The notes under the pieces: model-generated
What the model was told of the DNA's origin: nothing
The model's input: only the letters and a program-made list of their open reading frames with translations
Database searches by the model: none
Shown: positions 8,624-53,847 of the stretch, piece after piece
How positions within the stretch are numbered: position 1 is the first letter of the stretch
Layout: the number at the start of each line of letters is the position of its first letter
Source of the DNA: a virus
Taxonomy: Duplodnaviria > Caudoviricetes
Direction: 5' to 3' (one strand)
Virus record (IMG/VR): IMGVR_UViG_3300001525_000075
Coordinates: 1 to 64,000 of that record
DNA length: 64,000 nucleotides
Position numbers and translations under genes: made by a program

Positions 8624-9214
8624 ATGGTAAACAAAATATTCCTATATGACGGTGTAAATAATAGAATAGAGCTAAATGTACCTGAAATTCTTTTAGTAAA
8701 AGAGTTTGCTAGGTTAATGGATAATAAAAGGAATATTTCTAAAGACGATCCTAAAGGAACTTATAAATTAAGAGCTTTTAAAGAATTTCAATACATTTGG
8801 TTAGCTATAGATTGGCAATCAGTATATGCTGATTATAGCGAACTAGAACGTCATAATGAAGCGTTAAAAGATTCGGGAATTACCGAAGAACAATTTAATG
8901 ACCCTGATTTTAGAAGTGCTTGTAGAAAGTATAGAGAACTGCAAGAATCTAATAGATCTATTAAAATGCTTCACGCTGCACAAAATACTGTAGATAAATT
9001 TATAGACTATTTTAATAACATTGATCCTGAAGAACGCGACCCTTTAACAGGTAAACCTATCTTTAAAGTTAAAGATATTATGACTGAAGTTTCTAATATT
9101 TCTAAAGTTAACGAAGAACTACAAATATTAGAATCACAGGTTAAGAAAGAGATTGCTGAACAATCATCTATTAGAGGTGGAGCAGAAGATGGATTTATAC
9201 CTCAAGGATTTTGA
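8624..9214 (+). CDS. Conserved protein immediately upstream of TerL (possible terminase small subunit)
   Basis: Position next to terL and helical, charged composition. The function is inferred from position only. Confidence 0.5.
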   Translation: MVNKIFLYDGVNNRIELNVPEILLVKEFARLMDNKRNISKDDPKGTYKLRAFKEFQYIWLAIDWQSVYADYSELERHNEALKDSGITEEQFNDPDFRSACRKYRELQESNRSIKMLHAAQNTVDKFIDYFNNIDPEERDPLTGKPIFKVKDIMTEVSNISKVNEELQILESQVKKEIAEQSSIRGGAEDGFIPQGF

Positions 9215-9216
9215 TT

Positions 9217-11523
9217 ATGGAAGTAAAACCTATTAAGAAGAAACGTGGACGTCCTAAGAAAAATCCTGTTTTACCTGAACCTATTCAAAAAATAGTTGAT
9301 GAAGTTAAAGCAAAAGAGGACAATGAAATAAAATAGATTATAAAAGAAGAGAAAGAAAAACGTAAAGGAGAATGGGATATAAAAATTGATGACCCAATTC
9401 TTTTCTTTGATTCTAATCTTTCTTATGAATTAACAGGTTATAAACCTATTAATAAAACTAAAGGTTTAGATTTTAAACCTGAATGGTTCACTGAAGCAAG
9501 AGATACTTTTAAAAGAACTGGACACTATTGTTAGTATCCTTCTAAAAGTAAAGCTTTTTCAGATTTTTGGACTAAAGAATACATAAGATGTCGAGATGGT
9601 ATGACTGTTAATGGATATACAATTACAGGAGATAATTATTTCTTCTTAAATTATTATCAATTAGCAAATCTCGAAACAGCTAAAGCTGGTACAGGTCGTG
9701 TAATGGATTTCCCTTCATTTTATGTCGCATAGTATGAATGGTTTCATTATTTAGAACTGTGCAAACGAGTTAGAAAGAATGCAGTTCTTATGAAAGCTCG
9801 TGGTGTCGGATTTTCAGAAATGGATGCATCTTTGGCTGCTAATACTTATAGTTGTAGAAGTCATACAAATACAATTATTGCTGCTAATTTGTCTAAATAT
9901 GTTGAAGATACTCTTTCTAAAACTTGGAATGCTTTATCATTTTTAAATGACTATACCGATAAAGGTTTCTTTAAATTAAGACAAGTAGTAGATAAATCAG
10001 ATATTAAAAAAGCATCTTATTATAAGATGATTAATGGTCAAAAGGTTGAAACAGGTTGGATGTCTCAGATTAAAGGTATTATTGCGGATTCACCTAATAA
10101 AATTCGTGGTGATAGATGTGATGTACTTTTATACGAAGAGTTAGGTTCTTGGGACAATTCAGTTAAAGCTTTTATACAAGGTGATGCATTAATTGGCATT
10201 CAAGGTATGACATTCGGGATAAAGATAGGCGGAGGAACAGGTGGGGACTCGGGTTCGAAGCTGGAGGGCCTCAGAACAATCTACTACAATCCTGAAGCTT
10301 ATAATGTTTTACCTTATAGACATAGATATACACAATCTCATGAAGAAGTATTAACTGCGTACTTTATTCCTGCGTTTACTGTAGTTAAAGGTAATTGTAT
10401 GGATGCTAGAGGATTCACCGATCCTGACAAAGGATTAGAATATTATAATAATAAACGTGCTGCATTTGCAAGTAATCCTAAAAACCTAATTACTTATGCG
10501 GCAGAATATTGTTATAATGCAGAAGAAGCTTTTTCATTGGAAGGAGATAATAAATTTAATAAAGCAGCTATTGCCGAATAGTTAGCTCTTATTAGATTAC
10601 ATAAACAAGGCAAAGAAGTAAAAACTGGAGATTTAGAATATATATTTAAAAACTCAGTACACACTCCTGATAATATTACAGGGATTACTTTTAAAAGTAA
10701 TCCTAATTCTAAATTAAAAATAATAGAACCTCCTATTTGGGAATGTAGTTCTATTAAAGATGGAGATGGTAATATTATTTGGAATCCTCCTTCTGAACCT
10801 ATTAATAATTTATATGTAGTCGGCATTGATAGTATTGATATTGGTATGCAAGATACATCAAGTGCTACAAAAAGTCCATCAGATTTTTGCGTTGTTGTTA
10901 AAAAACGTGCATATGGTTTACAAGAACCTGAATATGTATGTATTTATAAAGACAGACCTGAAGATATTAGAACTGCATATAAAATAGCAATCAAAATAGC
11001 ATATTGGTATAACGCTATGATTAACATAGAAGCTACTAGAATGAATATGATTAGTTGGGCTAGAGATAATCATCACTTGAAATATTTTATGAAAAGACCA
11101 AGTGCTACTTATCCTGATCCTAATAAACGTAATCGCAACTAGTATGGTTCTCCTGCAACTTTAGCCGTAATCGATCATCAAACAACTCTTATTGCAGACT
11201 TTGTCAACGATTATTGTCACAATATTTGGTTTGAGGAAATGTTAGATGAACTTAATAGATATACTGACGACAATAAAACTAAGTTTGATATTATTGCAGC
11301 AATGGGTATGAGTGAACTTGCTGATGAAGAATTACATGATGTATCACCTCGTTCAGTAGAACCCGAAACTTACGATTTTCAAGACATAGGCTATTATGTT
11401 GATGAGAAAGGTGTGAAACGTTACGGTATTATACCTAAAACTAATAAATACGAAACTAGAGTTAATGATAATTGGAGAGAATAGAATAATTTTATACGAA
11501 CCAGTAATTCTTATTATAGATGA
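9217..11523 (+). CDS. terL: Terminase large subunit (768 aa, code 15)
   Basis: Frame 1 reads through TAG at 9334, 9532, 9730, 10579, 11140 and 11482 to TGA 11521. Motifs: Walker A-like KARGVGFSE, Walker B LLYEE, GTGG, nuclease YVVGIDSID and FDIIAA. Confidence 0.95.
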
Positions 11524-39453: not shown

Positions 39454-39587
39454 ATATTTATTAAAATTTTGTTTTATAATAATTAAATCATATATTGGAG
39501 GAGTCATGACAAAATCGAACTTATAAATTTTAATCAGATAATTATATAACAAGATTTCATTAGTTTAACATTTTTAATTTTTATTTT

Positions 39588-40493
39588 ATGTCTGATAGTA
39601 AAGTTTTTATGTTTCCTGAACAAAGTAGTAATTCAGGAATCATGTCTATGTTAGCTCCGTTGTTATAGCAAAAAGGAGTTGATCCTAACGTGTTATTAGC
39701 TATGAGAAACAACTCAGGTTTTGGAGGTGAAGGTGGCTGGTTCATGTGGGTAATTTTCTTATTCTTCCTTATGGGATGGGGAGGAAATGGTTGGAACGGA
39801 TTGGGAAATAGAGGTACTGAAGGTTTAACAAATCAAATTAATAATGATTATGGAAGAGACCTTTTATTACAGGCTATTAACGGAAATGCCACAGCTATAT
39901 CTCAATTAGCTACTACTCTTAATTGTGATGTTAATGCTATTCAAGATGCAATTAATTCTGTAAATTCTAATGTAAGTAATGTAAGTAATCAAGTTGGATT
40001 ATCTAGTCAACAAGTAATTAATGCAATCCAAAGTGGTAATCAAACTATTGCTGCACAAATGGCACAATGTTGCTGTGATAATAAATTACTTGTTACTAAT
40101 CAAGGATATGAGTCTAGAATAGCAACGTTAGAATAGACAAATCAATTAGGATCTAAAGTAGACGCAGGAACAAGTCAAATTACTAATGCTATTGCAAATT
40201 AGACTGCACTTATTAATGATAGATTTTGTGCATTAGAATTGCGTGATATGCAAGCTAAGATTGACGCTTTGCAAGAAGAAAAGAGTACTTTACAAAATCA
40301 TATAAGTAATGCTAATCAAACTACTCAAATTCAATCTTATATCGCAAATGTAGTTAATCCTATTGCACAAGAAGTTAATGCTATTAAATCAGCATAGCCT
40401 GCTACAGTAACATTACCTTATAGTTGTGCAACTGCTGTCCCAACAGCTTTAGCTTATCAACAAGGTTTAAGTACTTAGGGTTTATGGTATTAA
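39588..40493 (+). CDS. Gly/Trp-rich hydrophobic-segment plus coiled-coil protein (301 aa, code 15)
   Basis: GFGGEGGWFMWVIFLFFLMGWGG followed by a Gln/Asn-rich coiled coil with AQCCC; ATG 39588 to TAA 40491. Confidence 0.8.
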
Positions 40494-43545: not shown

Positions 43546-46500
43546 ATGATTATAGCGAATTTTGTTAGCAATCGTCCCACAATGTCTGAGACGAGAACTT
43601 ATGAGGACTTTTACAAATTTTTGGGTATGTGAGTGCCACTTTATTTAGTAATAAATAATAGTAACTATGTGAAACGGAGAAACCCTCCATTACAAAGGGT
43701 AATTCCGTAGGAAACTTTGACATAAAGGACCTCTAACGAATAGAGATTTGCTTTTAAATAATCCGAATTCACGGAAATATGGAATTAAGGAAAAAATCAA
43801 TATTGATAGCTTTAGTTATTGGTGACGGAACTATTAATTATCAAACTAAAGTTATTAAAGGAAAAACATATAAATACGCTAATTTAGAAGTCAATCATTC
43901 TTATAAACAATTAGAATATTGTAAATGGAAAGCTAATTTATGTAAATCTATTACTGGAAGGAAATGTTTAATACGCTACAAACACGTTCCTGAAAGAAAA
44001 ATAAATAATCGGATAACTAAATCTACAGAAGCTTGTAGATTTACTTGTTGTCACAGATATTTTAGAATTTTACGAAAGTGGCTTTATCCTAATAATAAGA
44101 AAAGATTAACTTCTAAATATTTAAAGTATTTAGATGAACAAGGTTTAGCAATTTGGTATATGGATGATGGTTCTTTATATGTAAGACCTGATAAATCCGC
44201 ATTTAATTGTGAATTACATACTCATATTCCTAAAGAAGACGCAGAAGATTTAATTTTAATGTTTCAAAACAAATGGAATATTAAATTTAATTTACATCAT
44301 GTTGGTGAAAATCAATATAATTTGAGATGTTGTTCTTATGCTGGTGTTAAATTTATAAAATTGATTTCTCCGTTTGTACCGCAATGTATGGATTACAAAT
44401 TAAAAATTCCTGAAAGATTTCTCCACGAGTGCATAGTACCCTAATTATAGGGTAATGATATATTCTAAACTAACAAGATGGCAAATTGTTAGAACTATAG
44501 GATAAAGAGCCTATAGGATAATATTATTGACTAAGCCCCATAAGTTGGGTGTAGTTTCACGTCTATACCCTGAGTTAACAGCTTCCTATCTTACTGAATC
44601 ATTGAGAAATATCTTTTATCAAGACCGTAAGTCTAATAACAAGTATCAATCAATTGATTCTATGTATCATTTTTAAAATCGGTACATATTAAATTCTCTG
44701 AATTGCTGGAATGTCTTTTAGATAATCAGCAGCTAAAATAAAATGTTCAACGACTAATCGAAAGATGTAATGTATAAAGTAATAAAAACTGTAAATGTAA
44801 AAACGGATGATTATTATCTTGGAATTATTTATTCTGAGAAAAATTCGTTTGATGGACAACTTGGAAACGGAGTTAACATAAATGACCCTATGACTTATCA
44901 ATTTAGTAAAACTAAATTTCAACAACAAGTTAAAGAGTGGGGTGTTAAATCCTTTAAAGTAGAAGTATTAAAAGAATATGATTCTTTAGAAGAAGCACAA
45001 GAATATTTAAATATAAAACTTACTCCTAAAGAAGTAGCTACTAAAGAGTGTTTAAATAATACTTATGCTGACAAGTTATATGAAGTATATGTATATGATA
45101 ATACAGGTAAATTTGCTAATAGTAAAATATTAGTAGACGCTGACACTGCATTTAATGGATTAAAACTTGATAAACAATATTTAAGTTTTTTATATGATGA
45201 AAAAGGATTCAGTAAAGCCAAGAAGATGCAGATTCAAAATAGACCTGTATATAAGTATGATATAAATGGAAATTTTATTTGTTCATACGAAACTCAAGTA
45301 CAAGCTGAAAAAGATAATAAATATAGTAATATTACTAAATCAATTAAACTTAAACAAGCTTGTAGAAATGGATTTTATTGGACTCTTCAAAAACTACCTA
45401 AATTATATTGGAAGAATCGTAAATGGGTTCAAGTTTATGATTCTCATTATAAATATATTAGAGGTTATAAGTTTTTAAAAGAATGTCAAAGAGTAAAAGG
45501 ATTTGAAGTTCGTGATGTAATGAATAAAAATATGTTATATGATGGATGTTTTTACTTTTATAAATGAAGTAGAGAATACTGAAATGTAATGATATAGTCT
45601 AATCTTAATAGAAATATTAAGTATTAATGTTTGAGTGGGAAGTTGAAACGAATTACATCAAGCGTGTTGAACTCGCTGATACTCCCCAAGGAGATGGCTC
45701 AAACGGTTCTGAAATTGAGTTTGCGTTTAAGGAAAGATATTATGAAAAGTATGATATTTTCAAGCATGACAAGACTATGCAACAATTTATGGTTGTAAGT
45801 CGTCCTATTCGTAAAGCAGACAATTACTGGGTAGTCACCTGTCGTTTAATTGATAGTGACTATTCTTCTAGCATTGATCTTAACGATTATTCTATTGGTG
45901 ACACCACTAGATTCCAATCTAATGCAATGCCTGAATTACACGAGGAAGGTAAACTTAACATATTAAAAAGAATTTACATTGCTTTCCTCCGTTAAGTTAT
46001 TAACTTAATGAATAATTAAAATAAAATTCTTAATTACTGGAAAGCCTATATTGGTAATCAGTAGCGAAATCTCAACTTTTACAAAAGTTCTGAGAAACGT
46101 TCAACGACTAGTCTAAAAGACGTAGGAGAAATGAACTCCGAAATGGAATAAATCTAACTTAAATACAATGAAATATATATAGTATATCAAACAGTAAATA
46201 AAGTAAACAATAAAATTTATATAGGTGTCCACGGAACAACTAATCCTAACGAATTCGACGGTTATATTGGAAATGGAGTTTTGATGGAGTAAATGAAGCG
46301 GGAAGATATTTGAATCCTAAAGCAATTGGTGCAGGACATTTACCTAGAGCAATTAAAAAAGGTCACCAATTTTTAGGACATCAATTCTCATACGAAAAGC
46401 TTCCATCTATGAAGAAATTAAAACATAGAAACGTAACTACTGTCGATAAACCTTATATTGGAGGAAAAATTGGAAGATATAATGATAATGGAGAACTTTT

Positions 46501-49500
46501 AGAAATTCTTCCGAATATGACTGAATGTGTTAAAGCAGGATACAAGAATGCTAAACAAGTAGCATTAGGAAAACGACAACATTGTAAAGGATTTGTATTT
46601 AAGTATTTAGATTAAGATATAGTCTGAACAATATTGAAAAGTATTGAATAACATAATTGTATGTAAAATATCAAAGTAATATTGAGCGTCATCGCAATTA
46701 TATTACTACTCACCGCGTAAATAGAGTAGTAATATTAGAATAATTATCGACTGCGCAAGATTATTAATAAAACAGATTAATCTGAAATAGTAATAATCAA
46801 TATCTTCTAAATTGCTGGAAAGTTCTTACTAATCAGCAGCCAAAAAATAAAAGGTTCAACGATTATCCAAATGGAGTAAAATTATGAAAAGGAAGATATA
46901 TAATATAAATATTAAATGAAATATATAGTATATTTAACAACTAATACACTTAACAACAAAATTTACATAGGAGTACATAAAACTGAAAATCCTGATGTGT
47001 TTGACGGATATATCGGATGTGGAGTTAATATGTGTTATCCAAGTAGTTACACAGATCCTAAAACTCCATTTCAGCACGCTGTTAAAAAATATGGAATTAA
47101 GAGTTTTAAGCGATATGTTTTACAAATTTTTGACTCTGAAGAAGAAGCTTATAATTTGGAATCAATTTTAGTAAATAAATCTTTTATCGCAAGAAATGAT
47201 ACATATAACATATCATTAGGAGGAAATAAAGGAAATTATTTATTTCCTATAAACCAATTTAATAAAGATGGAAATTTTATCAAATCTTGGGATAACATGC
47301 TTGTTGCATCTGAAGCTTTGGGCGTATCACATACTAGTATTAATAATGCTAAATTGTTTAAAGTAAGTTGTTTAGGTTATTTTTGGTCTACAGATTCATT
47401 TATTAATATAAAAGAATATAGTTATCATGTTGGAAAAAATGTTTATAAATATACTAAAAATGGCGAGTTAATAGATTCTTACGAATCACTGACTAATGCT
47501 GCTAAAAGTAATAATAGTTTAGAAAAAACTATATTTAGGTCGATTCAATCAAATATTCAAGTTCAAGGATTTTATTATTCATTTACACTTGTAGATAAAT
47601 TTATTCCTAAAAAATTACCTAGTTTAAAAGGTAAAATTGTATATATTTACGATTTAAACGGAAATTATCTAACAAAAAAAGAAAGTGGATCTGAATTAAA
47701 AAAATATTATAATGTAAAATCTTACGGTTGTTTAAGGCAAGCCCTTATTACTGGGAAACCTTATAAAAACACACAAGTTTCTTTAGAATTTAAAGATAAG
47801 TTAAATCCTGTAGAATCTTCAACTAATAAAGCAAAACGCATAGGTGTTTATGATTTAAATGGAAATTTAATAGAAGAATTTGAATCTATAAAATCTGCTT
47901 CTAGAAAATACGGGAGTTGTGTGTTTAGAGTACTCAATCATCGACAAAAACAATCTAAAAATTTAATATTTAAATATTTATAATTATATAAAGATATAGT
48001 CTATTTTGAGACGATAGTTATTCAGCCCTCTACGCTGCTCATGAGAACCAATTTATCAGTATTGCCGAAGGTAAAGACCAAGGTTCTCTTACTGAAACCA
48101 TCTATAAAATGCAAAAGAAGGAAAAGACTCTTCTCGACAATTTCCTTTATGTGCGTAATAATGGCTTATTATTTAATAAGTGTAATGTTGATGTGAACGG
48201 TTAGTGTTTAGCCGCATAATAAATAATTTATTATGAAAACCTTTTGAATTGCTGGGAAGCCTGTGATGGTAATCAGCAGCTACTTTAAAGAAATAGAGTA
48301 GTTCAACGACTAGAAACTATTAGGTAATTTAATGAATAAATAGATTCATATATTATAATTTAATAATCAAATAGGATTATATGGAATTAACAGAAGAACA
48401 AAAAAGCTTATTGCTAGCGTTGTGTATAGGAGACGGTTGTTTACGAAAACCTCATCCTAAATCAGGAAATGTTCAACTAGAAATTGCTCATTCTACAAAA
48501 CAAGAAGAATACTGTAAATGGAAACGTGATTTAGTTTATAGTATTTTTGGAGGAAAAAGAATTCCTAAAATAGGATATAAAACAATAAAATTAAAAAATA
48601 GAGATAAGGAATATAAAGCATGTAGGTTTACTAAATCTCATCCTTATTTCTTATACTTAAGACATTTGTTATATCCTAACAATGTGAAAGTTATGACTAG
48701 AGAAATATTAGATAAGTTGACATTACAAGGTTTAGCAATTTGGTACATGGACGATGGTTCTTTTTACAAAAAAGATAACGAAGATGGAACTAAATCTATA
48801 TGCTTTGATTTAAGAATTTCAACTGATTCTTTTTCTTATGAAGAAAACGTATTAATATGTGATTTCTTTAAAGAAAAATATGGTATAAATTTTTATCCAT
48901 ATAAAACACATAAAGAAAAAGAACATAGTTGGGTTTTAAGAGCTAATAAACAAGCTGCTATAAAGTTTATAAATTTAATTAAACCTTATGTTATTCCTTC
49001 AATGAAATACAAAATAGAATATAAAAGTTAATAGTTTCCAAGAGTAAAAGGCAACTTTAAAATTAAAGTTGAAGATATAGTCTAAACTTATACGAAATTA
49101 GAAGTATAAGAATTACAGGATAAAGAGCCTGTAAGATAATATAATTGAAGCCCACAATCAGCGATCCTGATACAGGTAGACCTAAACATTGAGTATAGTA
49201 ACTTAATAAATGGGTCGAATAGATGTAAATCTATTTATAAATAATTTTCTTTAATTGCTGGAAACTCTTATTTAAGATAATCAGCAGCTAATTTTTACAT
49301 ATAGTAAGCATTAATAATGTAACTGTAAAAAAGTTCAACGACTAGGTTTTAACCGTACATCTATAAGATGGAAATAGGAAATAACTTAAAGTAAAAGTAT
49401 AAAACTTATGAAGTATGTAGTATACTTAACTACAAACAAAATAAATAATAAAACTTGTGCAGGTTTTAAATGGAGTTATGAAAAATCAAAAATGATTTTG

Positions 49501-51589
49501 CCTTACAAAAAATCTAATATAAAACCTGTAAAAATAGCGCAATACGATTTAAATCATAAGTTAATAAAAATTTGGAATTCTGTATCTGAGTGTAAAAAAG
49601 AATTTCCAAGTTGTCAAAAAGTTTGTAGAAAAGAAAGAAAAACTTCAAAAAATTTTATATTTGAATATATAAGTTAAAGATATAGTCTGCTCTTTATAGT
49701 AATATAAAGATAACAAAAGAATTTATATAGGTGATGGTATCATACCTCAAGTTGAGCGTTTTGCATCTAAGTATGCTTTCGCTAAGTTAACTATTGAGGT
49801 ATTCCATACTGTAATTGCTACACTTAATGAAAAAGCTTCTCAACCTACTGGTAATCACTATATGTTTATATGCAACGAACGTATGTGGAACCTCATTCAA
49901 CAAGTTCTTGGCGATTATCTCGCTAAGTTCAAGACTGATGGTACTTATCTTTACTCTAAGGCTGCTAACGGCTATGTAAAGGTGGGCGCAACGTTTGATT
50001 CATATGAATACGGTGGAAATAGTATTACTTTTAAGGTTGATCGCACATTCTCACGTGAATATGGCTTTGAAAAAGGCTACTGCCTTTGCCTTGATTTAAC
50101 TGCGGATTAGACTTCCGCAGAACCTCCTATTTAAATATCTAGGTAGGAGTTAAAAATAACTTCCTAATTGCTGGAAACTCTTATTTAAGACAATCAGCAG
50201 CTAAGTATTAGAATATGCAAACTTTATAAGTAGCTCTAATAAAAGTTCAGAGGCTAGTTACGAAACTTAAATTATTAAAATAATAATTGAAATGGAAGAC
50301 AAATTTAAATATATAGTATATTTAACTACAAATCTTGTAAATAATAAAATTTACATAGGAGTACATAAAACAAAAAATCCTGAAGTATTTGATGGGTATC
50401 TTGGATGCGGAGTTAAAATATCTGACAGATCGACTTATAGATATTGTCATACTCCATTTGAATCAGCTGTTAATAAATATGGACCTTCTAAATTTAAACG
50501 AAAAACTTTAAAAGTTTTTAATAAATTAGAAGATGCGTTAGATCTTGAACGACGGCTAGTAGATTCAAACTTTATTAAACGTAAAGATACTTACAATGTA
50601 ACCTTGGGTGGAAATTTACCTCCTACATCAAAAAAAATTATATATCAATATTCTTTAAAAGGATCTTTTATAAAAGAATGGGATTCTATAACAGAAGCGT
50701 CCATTTTCTATAAATGTAGTTCTTCTTCTATCGGAAAAGCTATATTTGATAGAACACCTAGTCGAGGTTATTTATGGACAGATTACAAATATGAATACAT
50801 TGATATAAATAATTTTAGAATTAATACAAATAAACATACTTGCTATATATATGATAGTTTGGGAAATTTTATAAATAGTACAACTTCTATAAACGAAGCT
50901 GCAAAACTATATAATCTTTCTTCAGGTAATATTTCTAACGCTATATCTGGCAAATATTGTGTAAACAAACAATATTATTTTTCTTCAGTTAAATATACTA
51001 AATTCCCAATCCCTGAAAAAATTTCTTATGATGACGGCTTTTATATGTATGATTTATCAGGTGTATTTATAAGACATTTTAAAACAATATCTGAAATACA
51101 AAAGTTTTTTAATACTAAACGAGTAAGCTCTGTATATAGAGCTATACGAACAGGAAATACCGCTTTTAATTATCAATGGAGTAATAAAAAATTACAAAAC
51201 ATGAAAGAATTAAAAGTTTATAATCAAAAACGAAAAGTTGGAAAATATAGCTTAAACGATGAACTTTTAGAAGTTTTTGATACAGTAAGAAGTGCGAGAA
51301 AAATAGCTTCCGGTGTTCCACAAGTGTTAAAAGGTCAAAGAAATACGGCAGGAGGTTATAAATGGAAATATATAGAATAAATTTGAAGATATAGTCCAAA
51401 ACTCAGTAGATGTTTACTTTGAAAGGGGGTGACTTCATCTCTAACAAGTACCTCGGTGTTGGTGGTGAAGATGGACTCAGCTCAGGTGTTGTTTCAAGTC
51501 CTGTTGCTGGTTCTAAGCTAATTAACTGGGGTTACAGTGGTGTAGGTGTATTTAATCCCTACAGATCTTTCATTTTGCGTGAAATTTGA
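43546..51589 (+). CDS. Major capsid protein, spliced from 8 exons (473 aa, code 15)
   Basis: Exons 43546-43626, 44530-44667, 45630-45950, 46660-46718, 48009-48201, 49148-49183, 49721-50131 and 51407-51589 total 1422 nt and give one continuous frame: MIIANFVSNRPTM...FLG|TKPHKLG...SMY|FEWEVET...HEEG|YVKYQS...HRV|DDSYS...DVNG|KPTISDPDTGRP|IYIGDGIIPQVER...PPI|QMFTLKGG...FILREI. Confidence 0.9.
43627..44529 (+). mobile_element. Group I intron 1 of MCP (903 nt)
   Basis: Preceded by U and ends in G; P7 GAATA (43738) / TATTC (44461); LAGLIDADG ORF in L8. Confidence 0.85.
43779..44444 (+). CDS. LAGLIDADG homing endonuclease (intron 1)
   Basis: LIALVIGDG and LAIWYMDDGS motifs. Confidence 0.9.
   Translation: MELRKKSILIALVIGDGTINYQTKVIKGKTYKYANLEVNHSYKQLEYCKWKANLCKSITGRKCLIRYKHVPERKINNRITKSTEACRFTCCHRYFRILRKWLYPNNKKRLTSKYLKYLDEQGLAIWYMDDGSLYVRPDKSAFNCELHTHIPKEDAEDLILMFQNKWNIKFNLHHVGENQYNLRCCSYAGVKFIKLISPFVPQCMDYKLKIPERFLHECIVP
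44668..45629 (+). mobile_element. Group I intron 2 of MCP (962 nt)
   Basis: AATTGCTGGAA / AATCAGCAG core; P7 GACTA (44752) / TAGTC (45595); terminal G. Confidence 0.88.
44770..45567 (+). CDS. Divergent GIY-YIG/NUMOD-type endonuclease (intron 2)
   Basis: YKVIKT...YYLG...FDGQLGNGV is alignable by eye to the intron 4 and 7 ORFs; has VYKYDINGNFI NUMOD1-like repeats. Confidence 0.65.
   Translation: MYKVIKTVNVKTDDYYLGIIYSEKNSFDGQLGNGVNINDPMTYQFSKTKFQQQVKEWGVKSFKVEVLKEYDSLEEAQEYLNIKLTPKEVATKECLNNTYADKLYEVYVYDNTGKFANSKILVDADTAFNGLKLDKQYLSFLYDEKGFSKAKKMQIQNRPVYKYDINGNFICSYETQVQAEKDNKYSNITKSIKLKQACRNGFYWTLQKLPKLYWKNRKWVQVYDSHYKYIRGYKFLKECQRVKGFEVRDVMNKNMLYDGCFYFYK
45630..45950 (+). CDS. Major capsid protein exon 3
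   Basis: FEWEVETNYIKRVE...SNAMPELHEEG; corresponds to most of track ORF 45627..45995. Confidence 0.85.
45951..46659 (+). mobile_element. Group I intron 3 of MCP (709 nt)
   Basis: AATTACTGGAA / AATCAGTAG covarying P4; P7 GACTA (46106) / TAGTC (46620); terminal G. Confidence 0.88.
46168..46615 (+). pseudogene. Degraded GIY-YIG endonuclease (intron 3)
   Basis: An extra AT dinucleotide after ATG 46168 shifts the frame off IVYQTVNKVNNKIYIGVH. Stop at 46290; C-terminal NUMOD fragment at 46310..46615. Confidence 0.8.
46719..48008 (+). mobile_element. Group I intron 4 of MCP (1290 nt, phase 2)
   Basis: Core motifs present; P7 GATTA (46861) / TAGTC (47997); splice GT|A reconstitutes a Val codon. 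Confidence 0.88.
46916..47983 (+). CDS. GIY-YIG homing endonuclease with NUMOD1 repeats (intron 4)
   Basis: YIVYLTTN...KIYIGVH, AVKKYG..SFKR, EEEAYNLE. Confidence 0.88.
   Translation: MKYIVYLTTNTLNNKIYIGVHKTENPDVFDGYIGCGVNMCYPSSYTDPKTPFQHAVKKYGIKSFKRYVLQIFDSEEEAYNLESILVNKSFIARNDTYNISLGGNKGNYLFPINQFNKDGNFIKSWDNMLVASEALGVSHTSINNAKLFKVSCLGYFWSTDSFINIKEYSYHVGKNVYKYTKNGELIDSYESLTNAAKSNNSLEKTIFRSIQSNIQVQGFYYSFTLVDKFIPKKLPSLKGKIVYIYDLNGNYLTKKESGSELKKYYNVKSYGCLRQALITGKPYKNTQVSLEFKDKLNPVESSTNKAKRIGVYDLNGNLIEEFESIKSASRKYGSCVFRVLNHRQKQSKNLIFKYL
48009..48201 (+). CDS. Major capsid protein exon 5
   Basis: DDSYSALYAAHENQFISIAEGK...NNGLLFNKCNVDVNG. Confidence 0.85.
48202..49147 (+). mobile_element. Group I intron 5 of MCP (946 nt)
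   Basis: AATTGCTGGGAA / AATCAGCAG; P7 GACTA (48308) / TAGTC (49078); terminal G. Confidence 0.88.
48381..49031 (+). CDS. LAGLIDADG homing endonuclease (intron 5)
   Basis: LLALCIGDG and LAIWYMDDGS motifs. Confidence 0.9.
   Translation: MELTEEQKSLLLALCIGDGCLRKPHPKSGNVQLEIAHSTKQEEYCKWKRDLVYSIFGGKRIPKIGYKTIKLKNRDKEYKACRFTKSHPYFLYLRHLLYPNNVKVMTREILDKLTLQGLAIWYMDDGSFYKKDNEDGTKSICFDLRISTDSFSYEENVLICDFFKEKYGINFYPYKTHKEKEHSWVLRANKQAAIKFINLIKPYVIPSMKYKIEYKS
49184..49720 (+). mobile_element. Group I intron 6 of MCP (537 nt; atypical junction)
   Basis: Core motifs present; P7 GACTA (49340) / TAGTC (49683); IGS ATAAATGGGTC (49206-49216) pairs both exons. The junction may be shifted by one base (49183-49719). 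Confidence 0.82.
49408..49677 (+). pseudogene. Internally deleted GIY-YIG remnant (intron 6)
   Basis: MKYVVYLTTNKINNK is fused directly to a C-terminal NUMOD1-like segment; the YIG and catalytic part are missing. Confidence 0.75.
49721..50131 (+). CDS. Major capsid protein exon 7
   Basis: IYIGDGIIPQVERFASKY...LDLTAD(Q)TSAEPPI; contains TAG 50108. Confidence 0.85.
50132..51406 (+). mobile_element. Group I intron 7 of MCP (1275 nt)
   Basis: P1 CTCCTATT / GGTAGGAG (50142-50149); P10 ATATCTA / TAGATGT; P7 GGCTA (50252) / TAGTC (51392); terminal G 51406. Confidence 0.9.
50292..51380 (+). CDS. GIY-YIG homing endonuclease with NUMOD1 repeats (intron 7)
   Basis: YIVYLTTNLVNNKIYIGVHKT, AVNKYG..KFKR, DALDLE. 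Confidence 0.88.
   Translation: MEDKFKYIVYLTTNLVNNKIYIGVHKTKNPEVFDGYLGCGVKISDRSTYRYCHTPFESAVNKYGPSKFKRKTLKVFNKLEDALDLERRLVDSNFIKRKDTYNVTLGGNLPPTSKKIIYQYSLKGSFIKEWDSITEASIFYKCSSSSIGKAIFDRTPSRGYLWTDYKYEYIDINNFRINTNKHTCYIYDSLGNFINSTTSINEAAKLYNLSSGNISNAISGKYCVNKQYYFSSVKYTKFPIPEKISYDDGFYMYDLSGVFIRHFKTISEIQKFFNTKRVSSVYRAIRTGNTAFNYQWSNKKLQNMKELKVYNQKRKVGKYSLNDELLEVFDTVRSARKIASGVPQVLKGQRNTAGGYKWKYIE
51407..51589 (+). CDS. Major capsid protein exon 8
   Basis: (Q)MFTLKGGDFISNKYLGVGG...GVFNPYRSFILREI, ending at TGA 51587. Confidence 0.85.
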
Positions 51590-52537: not shown

Positions 52538-52557
52538 ATTTTTAAAATTTAAAAGTT

Positions 52558-53847
52558 ATCACAGCAAGACAAATTTTTGAGGGGTTGCTCATCGAACTTA
52601 GTAAAGTTCATGCCCCGTCCTTGTTACTTTAGGATTTTAATTATCTATTTAACAAGGCTATTAACTAGTACATAAATAAACGATACAATATTTATGATGT
52701 TAATTAGCAAACTACTGATGATTTAAGAGTTTTAAAAGCAACAACAATGTTGACTCCTACAAAAGCTTATTAGAATACTTATTTTAACAGCACAATATTA
52801 GGAACTAAACATCCTAGTATTGCTAATTTACAAGGAGCAACTTATGAAGTAACATTACCCAATGATTACTTACATTTATTAAATTGTATTTGTGTTTATA
52901 AGGTAAACAAAACTTATAAATGCTATGATAAGGATACTTATGTTTAGTTTGCTGCTAAACGTTTAACTGCTGATGCTTGGTCTACTATCATTAATGACTT
53001 TTATAACAGACCTCTTCCTGAAAGACCTTATTATTATATTCATAATGTAAATTAGAGTGTTTCTGAACCCACTAATTTATATCAATCTAGTATCCCGGGG
53101 TCAACTGATCAATTAGATTCTAAAATTTATGTTTCTACATTAAATGAATATTGGGATATCGTAGGTGAAGATAAACACGGTCGTTCAATTCTTAAACCTA
53201 TTGATAATAGTAAGCTTTGGAAATTATCAATTCTTGATGAAACGGGTGAAGAAAGTACAGAATACAGTATTAATAAATTGACGTCTGTTATAACATTAAT
53301 TGGTAAACTGATTAATATAACAGGTCTTGATTCACAAGGAAGCGAAACTGAATTTTACTTAGGAACTAAGAAAGTAAACGATTTAGATAAAATTTGTTTA
53401 GTAATCGAGGATTATTTACCCGAAGCTCACGAGGGGATTAATAGAAGTGAATTTGACACTAATCAATACCCTCGTACTTTAGATTTAAGAGGCAATTCTA
53501 TTTCTTTAATAGAAAAACCTGCTTATCTCCGTCATTCTAATGCTACAGAAGTACGTTGTGAAATTAGATATGGTAAGGATGATTCAGTTTTTGAATTAGT
53601 AGAAGTATTAGTAGATTATATTAAATCGCCGTAGTATATTAGATTAACTCAGGAACAACTTGATTTAACAGAGGATACCTCTCAAATTATGGAGTTTCCT
53701 GATAATGTTTGTAATGAGATAATAAATGAGCTGGTAACTGTAGTAATGGAGAATACTCAAGATCCTAGACTACAAACACATGTTGCAGTTTCTTAGTCTA
53801 TTGCCTAGCCTGCTCAACAATAGACTGCTTAGCCCGCTTAGGCTTAA
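52558..53847 (+). CDS. Head-tail connector/ring-type structural protein (429 aa, code 15; probable ATC start)
   Basis: (M)TARQIFEGLLIELSKVHAPSLLL(Q)DFNYLFNKAIN(Q)YINKRYNIYDVN(Q)QTTDDLRVLK; in-frame TAA at 52543 just upstream; ends at TAA 53845. Confidence 0.75.

Follow-up and report, generated by a model that had tools for sequence, protein, structure and literature searches.

The 64,000-nt stretch of DNA analysed here (the window) comprises positions 1 to 64,000 of the IMG/VR virus record IMGVR_UViG_3300001525_000075 (Caudoviricetes), and carries a major capsid protein (MCP) gene divided into eight exons by seven group I introns. Our subject is the last of these introns, intron 7, and the TAG codon with which exon 8 begins directly downstream of it. 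The exons were located as eight ordered tblastn pieces between 43546 and 51586, using as query the 473-aa capsid protein that an intron-less relative (MT835470.1, locus L001) encodes in a single frame. All eight are in frame and display 66–95% identity to this intact relative, and about 82% of the capsid locus is intron. Our own join of the exons gives 474 codons with one in-frame TGA, the bounds of exon 3 or exon 5 being off by a few bases, which leaves intron 7 unaffected. Exons 7 and 8 had no match in PHROGs, and the named-phage collection contained only two relatives of the capsid protein, both unannotated. The features surrounding the final splice junction are as follows.

49721–50131, plus strand: capsid exon 7, residues 277–413 of the intron-less relative (tblastn 68.6% identity, E 1e-56)
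50108–50110, plus strand: second in-frame TAG, within exon 7; the column is variable, with K/S/A in relatives
50124–50131, plus strand: 5' strand of P1, CTCCTATT, with the 5' splice site after U50131
50132–51406, plus strand: group I intron 7, 1275 nt, with an in-frame TAA at its start and G at its end; partial RF00028 match, core helices covary
50135–50141, plus strand: P10 guide ATATCTA, ending in the CTA that pairs with the TAG codon
50142–50149, plus strand: internal guide, the 3' strand of P1, GGTAGGAG; P1 covaries in relatives
51406, plus strand: terminal G of the intron (omega G), 9 nt from P7', with no P9 hairpin
51407–51409, plus strand: TAG, codon 1 of exon 8, equivalent to Gln414 of intron-less relatives and forming the first three P10 pairs
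51407–51589, plus strand: capsid exon 8, of 60 codons and a TGA stop, 88% identical to the C-terminus of the relative

Exon 7 ends with ...GAA CCT CCT ATT at 50131 and is followed directly by an in-frame TAA, which forms the first codon of the intron. P1 comprises eight base pairs between CTCCTATT and GGTAGGAG, six of them Watson-Crick and two U.G at the last two positions, the splice-site pair being U50131.G50142. P10 abuts it directly and pairs TAGATGT (51407–51413) with ATATCTA (50135–50141) through six Watson-Crick pairs and one G.U, so that the ligated exons and the guide can form an unbroken 15-bp duplex (−18.4 kcal/mol). Full pairing to the P10 guide is possible for only 0.12% of the heptamers in the window, and among the G residues between 51340 and 51431 only G51406 precedes a heptamer that pairs fully. 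The predicted spliced message reads CCT ATT/TAG ATG TTT, with the junction ...GAACCTCCTATT/TAGATGTTTAC... On re-reading, the intron bounds, the terminal G51406 and the coordinates of P1 and P10 proved identical, to the base, to those of an original prediction made from the letters of the sequence.

The protein alignment leaves exactly one codon for this TAG, since the tblastn piece of exon 7 stops at Ile413 and the next resumes at Met415. Residue 414 of MT835470.1 is glutamine, encoded by CAA in the context ...GCT ATT CAA ATG TTC... Of 80 IMG/VR loci retrieved with exon 7 as query, approximately 70 have an uninterrupted site, and each of these has exactly one codon between Ile and Met, which is mostly CAA, is CAG in four loci and GCA, GCT or GGT in a few, and is never TAG or a gap. 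The TAG at 51407–51409 is therefore exonic and stands for glutamine.

Homologues of intron 7 occupy the same capsid site in a number of related loci, including contigs rated complete by CheckV.

L048: 1338 nt; guide TTG, exon codon CAA
L081/L171 type: 1379 nt; guide TTG, exon codon CAA
L128: 1368 nt; guide TTG, exon codon CAA
L124: 1317 nt; guide CTA, exon codon TAG (as also in L287)
L112: 237 nt, endonuclease open reading frame (ORF) lost with remnants of both ORF ends kept; guide CTA, exon codon TAG (as also in L312)
L069/L182 type: 934 nt, apparently with a one-base shift
L008: contig ends inside the intron; guide TTG

The guide triplet and the codon it faces change together. CTA is found opposite TAG in the window and in the L112 and L124 lineages, compared to TTG opposite CAA in L048, L128, L310 and the L081/L171 type, such that two of the three P10 guide-codon pairs are altered on both sides. 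The guide of L008 is TTG, which predicts CAA or CAG as the first exon codon, lying beyond the end of that contig. Across the homologous introns the 5' exon always ends in U and the intron in G, and P1 covaries in five relatives (CTCC/GGAG, CTGC/GCAG, CGCC/GGCG, CACC/GGTG). The P10 helix of L124 has four pairs, and that of L112 has only the three of TAG:CUA. Because the guide triplet complements the first exon codon across lineages, we conclude that the TAG is exonic and P10-paired, and that the guide was re-tuned to it. The proposed pairing of P10 with the TAG is thus borne out, both by these changes and by the chance estimate above; the further suggestion that the pairing holds the TAG fixed is not supported, as homologous introns use CAA with a TTG guide and codon and guide co-vary. 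A looser DNA pattern for the 3' intron end returned at least 118 matches, mostly noise; a tighter pattern, together with one metagenome scan, gave among the matches listed only known lineages and no new TAG-type lineage.

An alternative is that the 3' splice site is G51409 rather than G51406, in which case the TAG would leave with the intron, no read-through would be required there and the capsid protein would be one residue shorter (EPPI-MFTLK). This residue is also a G, its use would keep the frame, and a second G is available in all three TAG-type introns. However, only two of seven positions pair with the guide after G51409 compared to all seven after G51406, and splicing there would delete a residue which is present between Ile and Met in every one of about 80 relatives. 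CAA-type homologous introns do not have the second G, so the codon is exonic in those; the complementarity of a CTA guide to TAG in three lineages would have no reason if TAG were intronic; and the TAG at 50108 needs read-through regardless. We consider use of G51409 very unlikely.

Two of the homologous introns display peculiarities of their own. The mini-intron of L112 lies at L112:6484-6730 (minus strand), and its first three bases, UAG, can pair with the same CUA as an extension of P1. The 934-nt intron, found in L069, L070, L071, L181, L182, L185 and L189, appears to be inserted one base upstream, with its 5' site after GAT and a 3' exon starting C CAA ATG, a placement without which the intron would not end in G; its P10 has 11 positions with one mismatch.

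A scan of the whole window against Rfam at gathering thresholds gave no match, because an ORF splits each intron core, while a permissive scan identified RF00028 cores in the introns, that of intron 7 at 50161–50265 (35.2 bits, E 4.9e-6). The ORF-less intron of L112 scored 41.8 bits against the full RF00028 model, and its sister introns in the L112 capsid gene 53.6–75.2 bits. Comparison of eight homologous introns was used to place P3, P7 and P8 in the window, giving the following core elements.

50160–50164, plus strand: 5' strand of P3, CTTCC, pairing with GGAAG at 50294–50298; covaries in the family
50165–50245, plus strand: J3/4 and the P4-P5-P6 domain, from the covariance-model alignment
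50249–50256, plus strand: 5' strand of P7, AGAGGCTA, pairing with 51391–51397; conserved in the family
50292–51380, plus strand: homing-endonuclease ORF of 362 aa, free of TAG and located in the P8 loop; the start ATG overlaps P3' (50294–50298) and the TAA the 3' strand of P8
50300–50306, plus strand: 5' strand of P8, CAAATTT, pairing with AAATTTG at 51379–51385; covaries
51379–51397, plus strand: 3' strand of P8, J8/7 (AAGATAT) and 3' strand of P7 (ATAGTCC, 51391–51397), fitting the group I consensus gAAGAUAUAGUC

The J8/7-P7' sequence, AAGATATAGTCC, is the consensus of the RF00028 model. Changes on both sides were found across the family in P3 (CTTCC/GGAAG, CTCCT/GGGAG, CTCGT/GCGAG, TCTCT/GGAGA) and P8 (CAAATTT/AAATTTG, TAACTTA/TAAGTTA, AAGTTTA/TAAACTT). 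The ORF matches phrog_314 'homing endonuclease' (E 2.9e-22) and scores above cut-off for NUMOD1 (50.6 bits) and the I-HmuI NUMOD-like domain (30.2 bits); its SegE_GIY-YIG match reaches 21.5 bits compared to a Pfam cut-off of 25, with a YIVY...IYIG motif visible. Judged by its sequence, intron 7 is a genuine group I intron, apparently mobile and predicted to be self-splicing. Between P7 and P3', and not after P3', there are two small hairpins (50257–50293 in the window, and homologous positions in relatives); the first has a stem of 3–4 bp, which covaries, and a GNRA-like tetraloop, a placement that is unusual for group I peripheral helices.

These compensatory changes also bear on the possibility that so fragmented a capsid gene is simply no longer functional, the contig being defective or mis-assembled, with neither splicing nor read-through taking place. 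While the contig is an incomplete metagenomic assembly in which no tRNA was found, and most of the capsid locus is intronic, the exons have kept their frame and their similarity to the intact relative, the covariation of P1, P3, P8 and P10 across relatives implies selection on RNA structure, and the same intron occurs in the CheckV-complete contigs mentioned above. We regard this explanation as extremely improbable.

In-frame TAG codons are not confined to the splice junction. Among the late genes of the window we counted 12 in the gene at 52546–53847, six in that at 39534–40493 and two in the capsid gene. In the first of these, four TAGs (positions 41, 54, 363 and 426) coincide with columns where 64–71 of approximately 76 relatives have Gln, and where TAG is itself the codon in some recoded relatives. 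In-frame TAG was found in these genes in 25 of 93 related loci, and tRNA(CUA) is encoded in the contigs of the recoded relatives L005, L018 and L029. Glutamine is thus the best reading of TAG in the late genes of the window phage, which would correspond to use of code 15. The identity of the junction codon with glutamine, as originally proposed, agrees with CAA or CAG at that codon in intron-less relatives and with the other TAGs on Gln columns, and the second in-frame TAG at 50108 is indeed present and must be read as an amino acid. The peptide EPPIQMFTLK, which had been offered as a target for mass spectrometry, is not a full tryptic peptide; the predicted one would start at GYCLCLD..., run to ...MFTLK across the splice junction and hold both TAG-encoded residues.

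The seven capsid intron ORFs (43758–51380) contain 50 CAA or CAG codons and zero TAG among approximately 1636 codons. In late genes nearby, TAG makes up as much as half of the Gln codons (12/26 and 6/31). The contig of L112 (G001, 151 kb, rated complete) has 12 in-frame TAGs in the aligned capsid-region genes, and eight tRNAs were detected in it, none with a CUA anticodon; tRNA-Gln(UUG) is present.

We propose that intron 7 is very probably excised just before a TAG that is read as glutamine, and that the co-evolution of guide and codon is of the ordinary kind and not a new mechanism. Guanosine would attack after U50131, which is positioned in P1 by the U.G pair with the internal guide. The released guide segment ATATCTA would then pair with the first seven bases of exon 8 to form P10, the terminal G51406 would move into the G-site in P7, and ligation of the exons would give ...CCU AUU UAG AUG UUU... 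Translation of the UAG as glutamine, the likely agent being a phage amber-suppressor tRNA as in recoded relatives, would produce the conserved motif EPPIQMFTLKGGDF. The TAG would represent a synonymous substitute for an ancestral CAA in a code-15 background, and a shift of the guide triplet from TTG to CTA would have preserved P10. On this model the capsid protein needs splicing and recoding, each independently, with nothing coupling them beyond the co-evolution of exon and guide.

Several points weigh against the model. The RF00028 score of intron 7 is below the gathering threshold of 50 bits, with the ORF interrupting the core, and the intron has neither P2 nor a P9 hairpin, the latter being found at that place in relatives. 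An ARAGORN search of the window, and of the entire 79 kb contig, yielded no tRNA of any type; with relatives measuring 95–195 kb, this contig is incomplete. We infer from sequence that the intron splices, that G51406 is used in vivo and that glutamine is inserted at both capsid TAGs. Finally, among recoded phages TAG occurs at column 414 in three of the four or five intron-bearing loci and in none of about 20 intron-less loci, which may point to a link between the intron and TAG.

This last association is what might be expected if the junction amber had been selected rather than drifted, either as part of a code-locked mobile unit or because it gates completion of the capsid until splicing and suppressor tRNA are both present. 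In the former case CTA-guide introns and their flanking exon TAG would spread together by homing and co-conversion. Were this so, co-conversion would bring the amber codon into the capsid gene of the recipient, spread would occur among TAG-recoding phages only, standard-code competitors would be crippled, and the repeated origin of TAG at codon 414 only in intron-bearing alleles would be the footprint of the process. The endonucleases provide a hint of more than one origin, as the three introns of TAG type are not most similar to one another (56% identity between the window and L124, 60% between the window and L048). However, with so few alleles, and with lineages that are not independent of one another, the association is no sufficient ground for claiming selection: in a capsid tree (196 columns) the window clusters with L112 (SH-aLRT 92), and L124 is left unplaced, so that a single TAG clade is neither supported nor rejected. 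The exon flanks of the three TAG alleles differ at synonymous sites, which argues against a recent shared co-conversion tract, and gating does not require a TAG at the junction, as exon 7 has one at 50108. We therefore consider a selected junction amber unlikely, and a code-locked unit in particular distinctly doubtful.

Drift, by comparison, is consistent with the frequency of TAG elsewhere in the protein. Counting TAG by capsid Gln column among 26 recoded loci, we found it at column 169 in 7/24, at column 185 in 4/24 and at column 414 in 3/23. The junction codon is thus not unusual, because TAG at column 414 is no commoner than at other conserved Gln columns. L048, a TAG-recoded phage, is predicted to splice onto CAA with a TTG guide, and L008, likewise recoded with a single in-frame TAG in the capsid gene, retains a TTG guide. 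CAG, the one-step intermediate, is the codon at position 414 in the four intron-less CAG loci noted above, which are recoded, as drift would lead one to expect. Along a route from CAA through CAG to TAG, with the guide passing from TTG through CTG to CTA, wobble pairs can form at every step. The meeting of splicing and read-through at one codon is most simply explained by drift with compensation in the guide. The idea that splicing and recoding are coupled at this codon is accordingly not upheld, since relatives splice onto CAA and TAG is not enriched at column 414. That the capsid protein needs both processes stands; that one depends mechanistically on the other does not, and because exon 7 already has a TAG at 50108 the dependence of the capsid on read-through is not tied to the junction codon.

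The large terminase subunit gene TerL (9211–11520) matched 119 phage records, all of them crAss-like or Flavobacterium Fpv-type (22–28% identity), and PHROG matches were found for TerL and portal. By these similarities the window appears to derive from a distant crAss-like gut phage, and fits the divergent, intron-rich, recoded Delta/Zeta groups. Dense introns, including capsid-gene introns, and stop-codon reassignment have been described in crAss-like phages by Yutin et al. 2021 (PMC7886860), many of these phages reassigning TAG or TGA in late genes. Multiple capsid-gene group I introns with endonuclease ORFs are common to the window and the Delta/Zeta phages of that study. However, the capsid example given there has four insertions, and the gene itself shows no alternative coding, compared to seven introns, a recoded codon at a junction and a compensated guide in the window, and the introns were recognised by protein domains without analysis of splice sites, guides or P10. 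Peters et al. 2022 (PMC9523058) used metaproteomics to show that TAG encodes glutamine in crAss-like phages, and code 15 in these phages has been surveyed by Borges et al. (bioRxiv 10.1101/2021.08.26.457843). As in code-15 crAss-like phages, the TAGs of the window lie in late or structural genes at Gln columns, and tRNA(CUA) is found in relatives of the window; in contrast to the Agate phages of Borges et al., in which the intron endonuclease is preferentially recoded, all seven intron ORFs of the window are free of TAG.

Intron 7 also resembles the T4 td, nrdB and sunY introns and other phage introns with GIY-YIG endonucleases (I-TevI type; review PMC3984707). Shared features are the group I core, the U.G pair in P1, P10, the terminal G, a free-standing ORF in a loop off a peripheral helix, an intron that opens with an in-frame stop and insertion at a highly conserved coding site. 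Unlike the T4 introns, that of the window carries its ORF in the P8 loop, with start and stop overlapping P3' and the 3' strand of P8, has two hairpins between P7 and P3', lacks P2 and the P9 hairpin and interrupts a gene of code 15. We found no paper on guides or P10 in the crAss-like introns, nor on a recoded codon at a splice junction. Capsid introns and TAG recoding are already known, and the covariation of guide and amber codon adds a small new detail.

No new mechanism is revealed by this junction. What it offers is evidence at the RNA level, independent of protein alignments, that the mature capsid mRNA of this recoded phage includes the TAG, the guide of the ribozyme itself having been reshaped to pair with it. 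It settles an exact exon-intron boundary, which is useful for annotating one of the most fragmented phage genes seen. CAA/TTG and TAG/CTA moreover form a natural matched pair with which to examine the share of P10 in selecting the 3' splice site of a minimal intron that lacks P9.

Some further observations concern the capsid gene as a whole. Between 43546 and 51589, introns 1 and 5 contain LAGLIDADG ORFs, and introns 4 and 7 ORFs of probable GIY-YIG/NUMOD type. L112 and L124 have still further introns within the regions matching exons 7 and 8 of the window. An ATG at 51362 opens a 75-codon frame, in the frame of exon 8, which runs through the 3' end of the intron into exon 8 (51362–51589); it includes an in-frame TAG within P7' (51392–51394), requires TAG as a sense codon to be open, and is probably a coincidence. 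The protein encoded by exons 7 and 8 is identical in L081 and in L074/L061, yet the intron 7 homologue is present in the former and absent from the latter, which indicates recent gain or loss of the intron.

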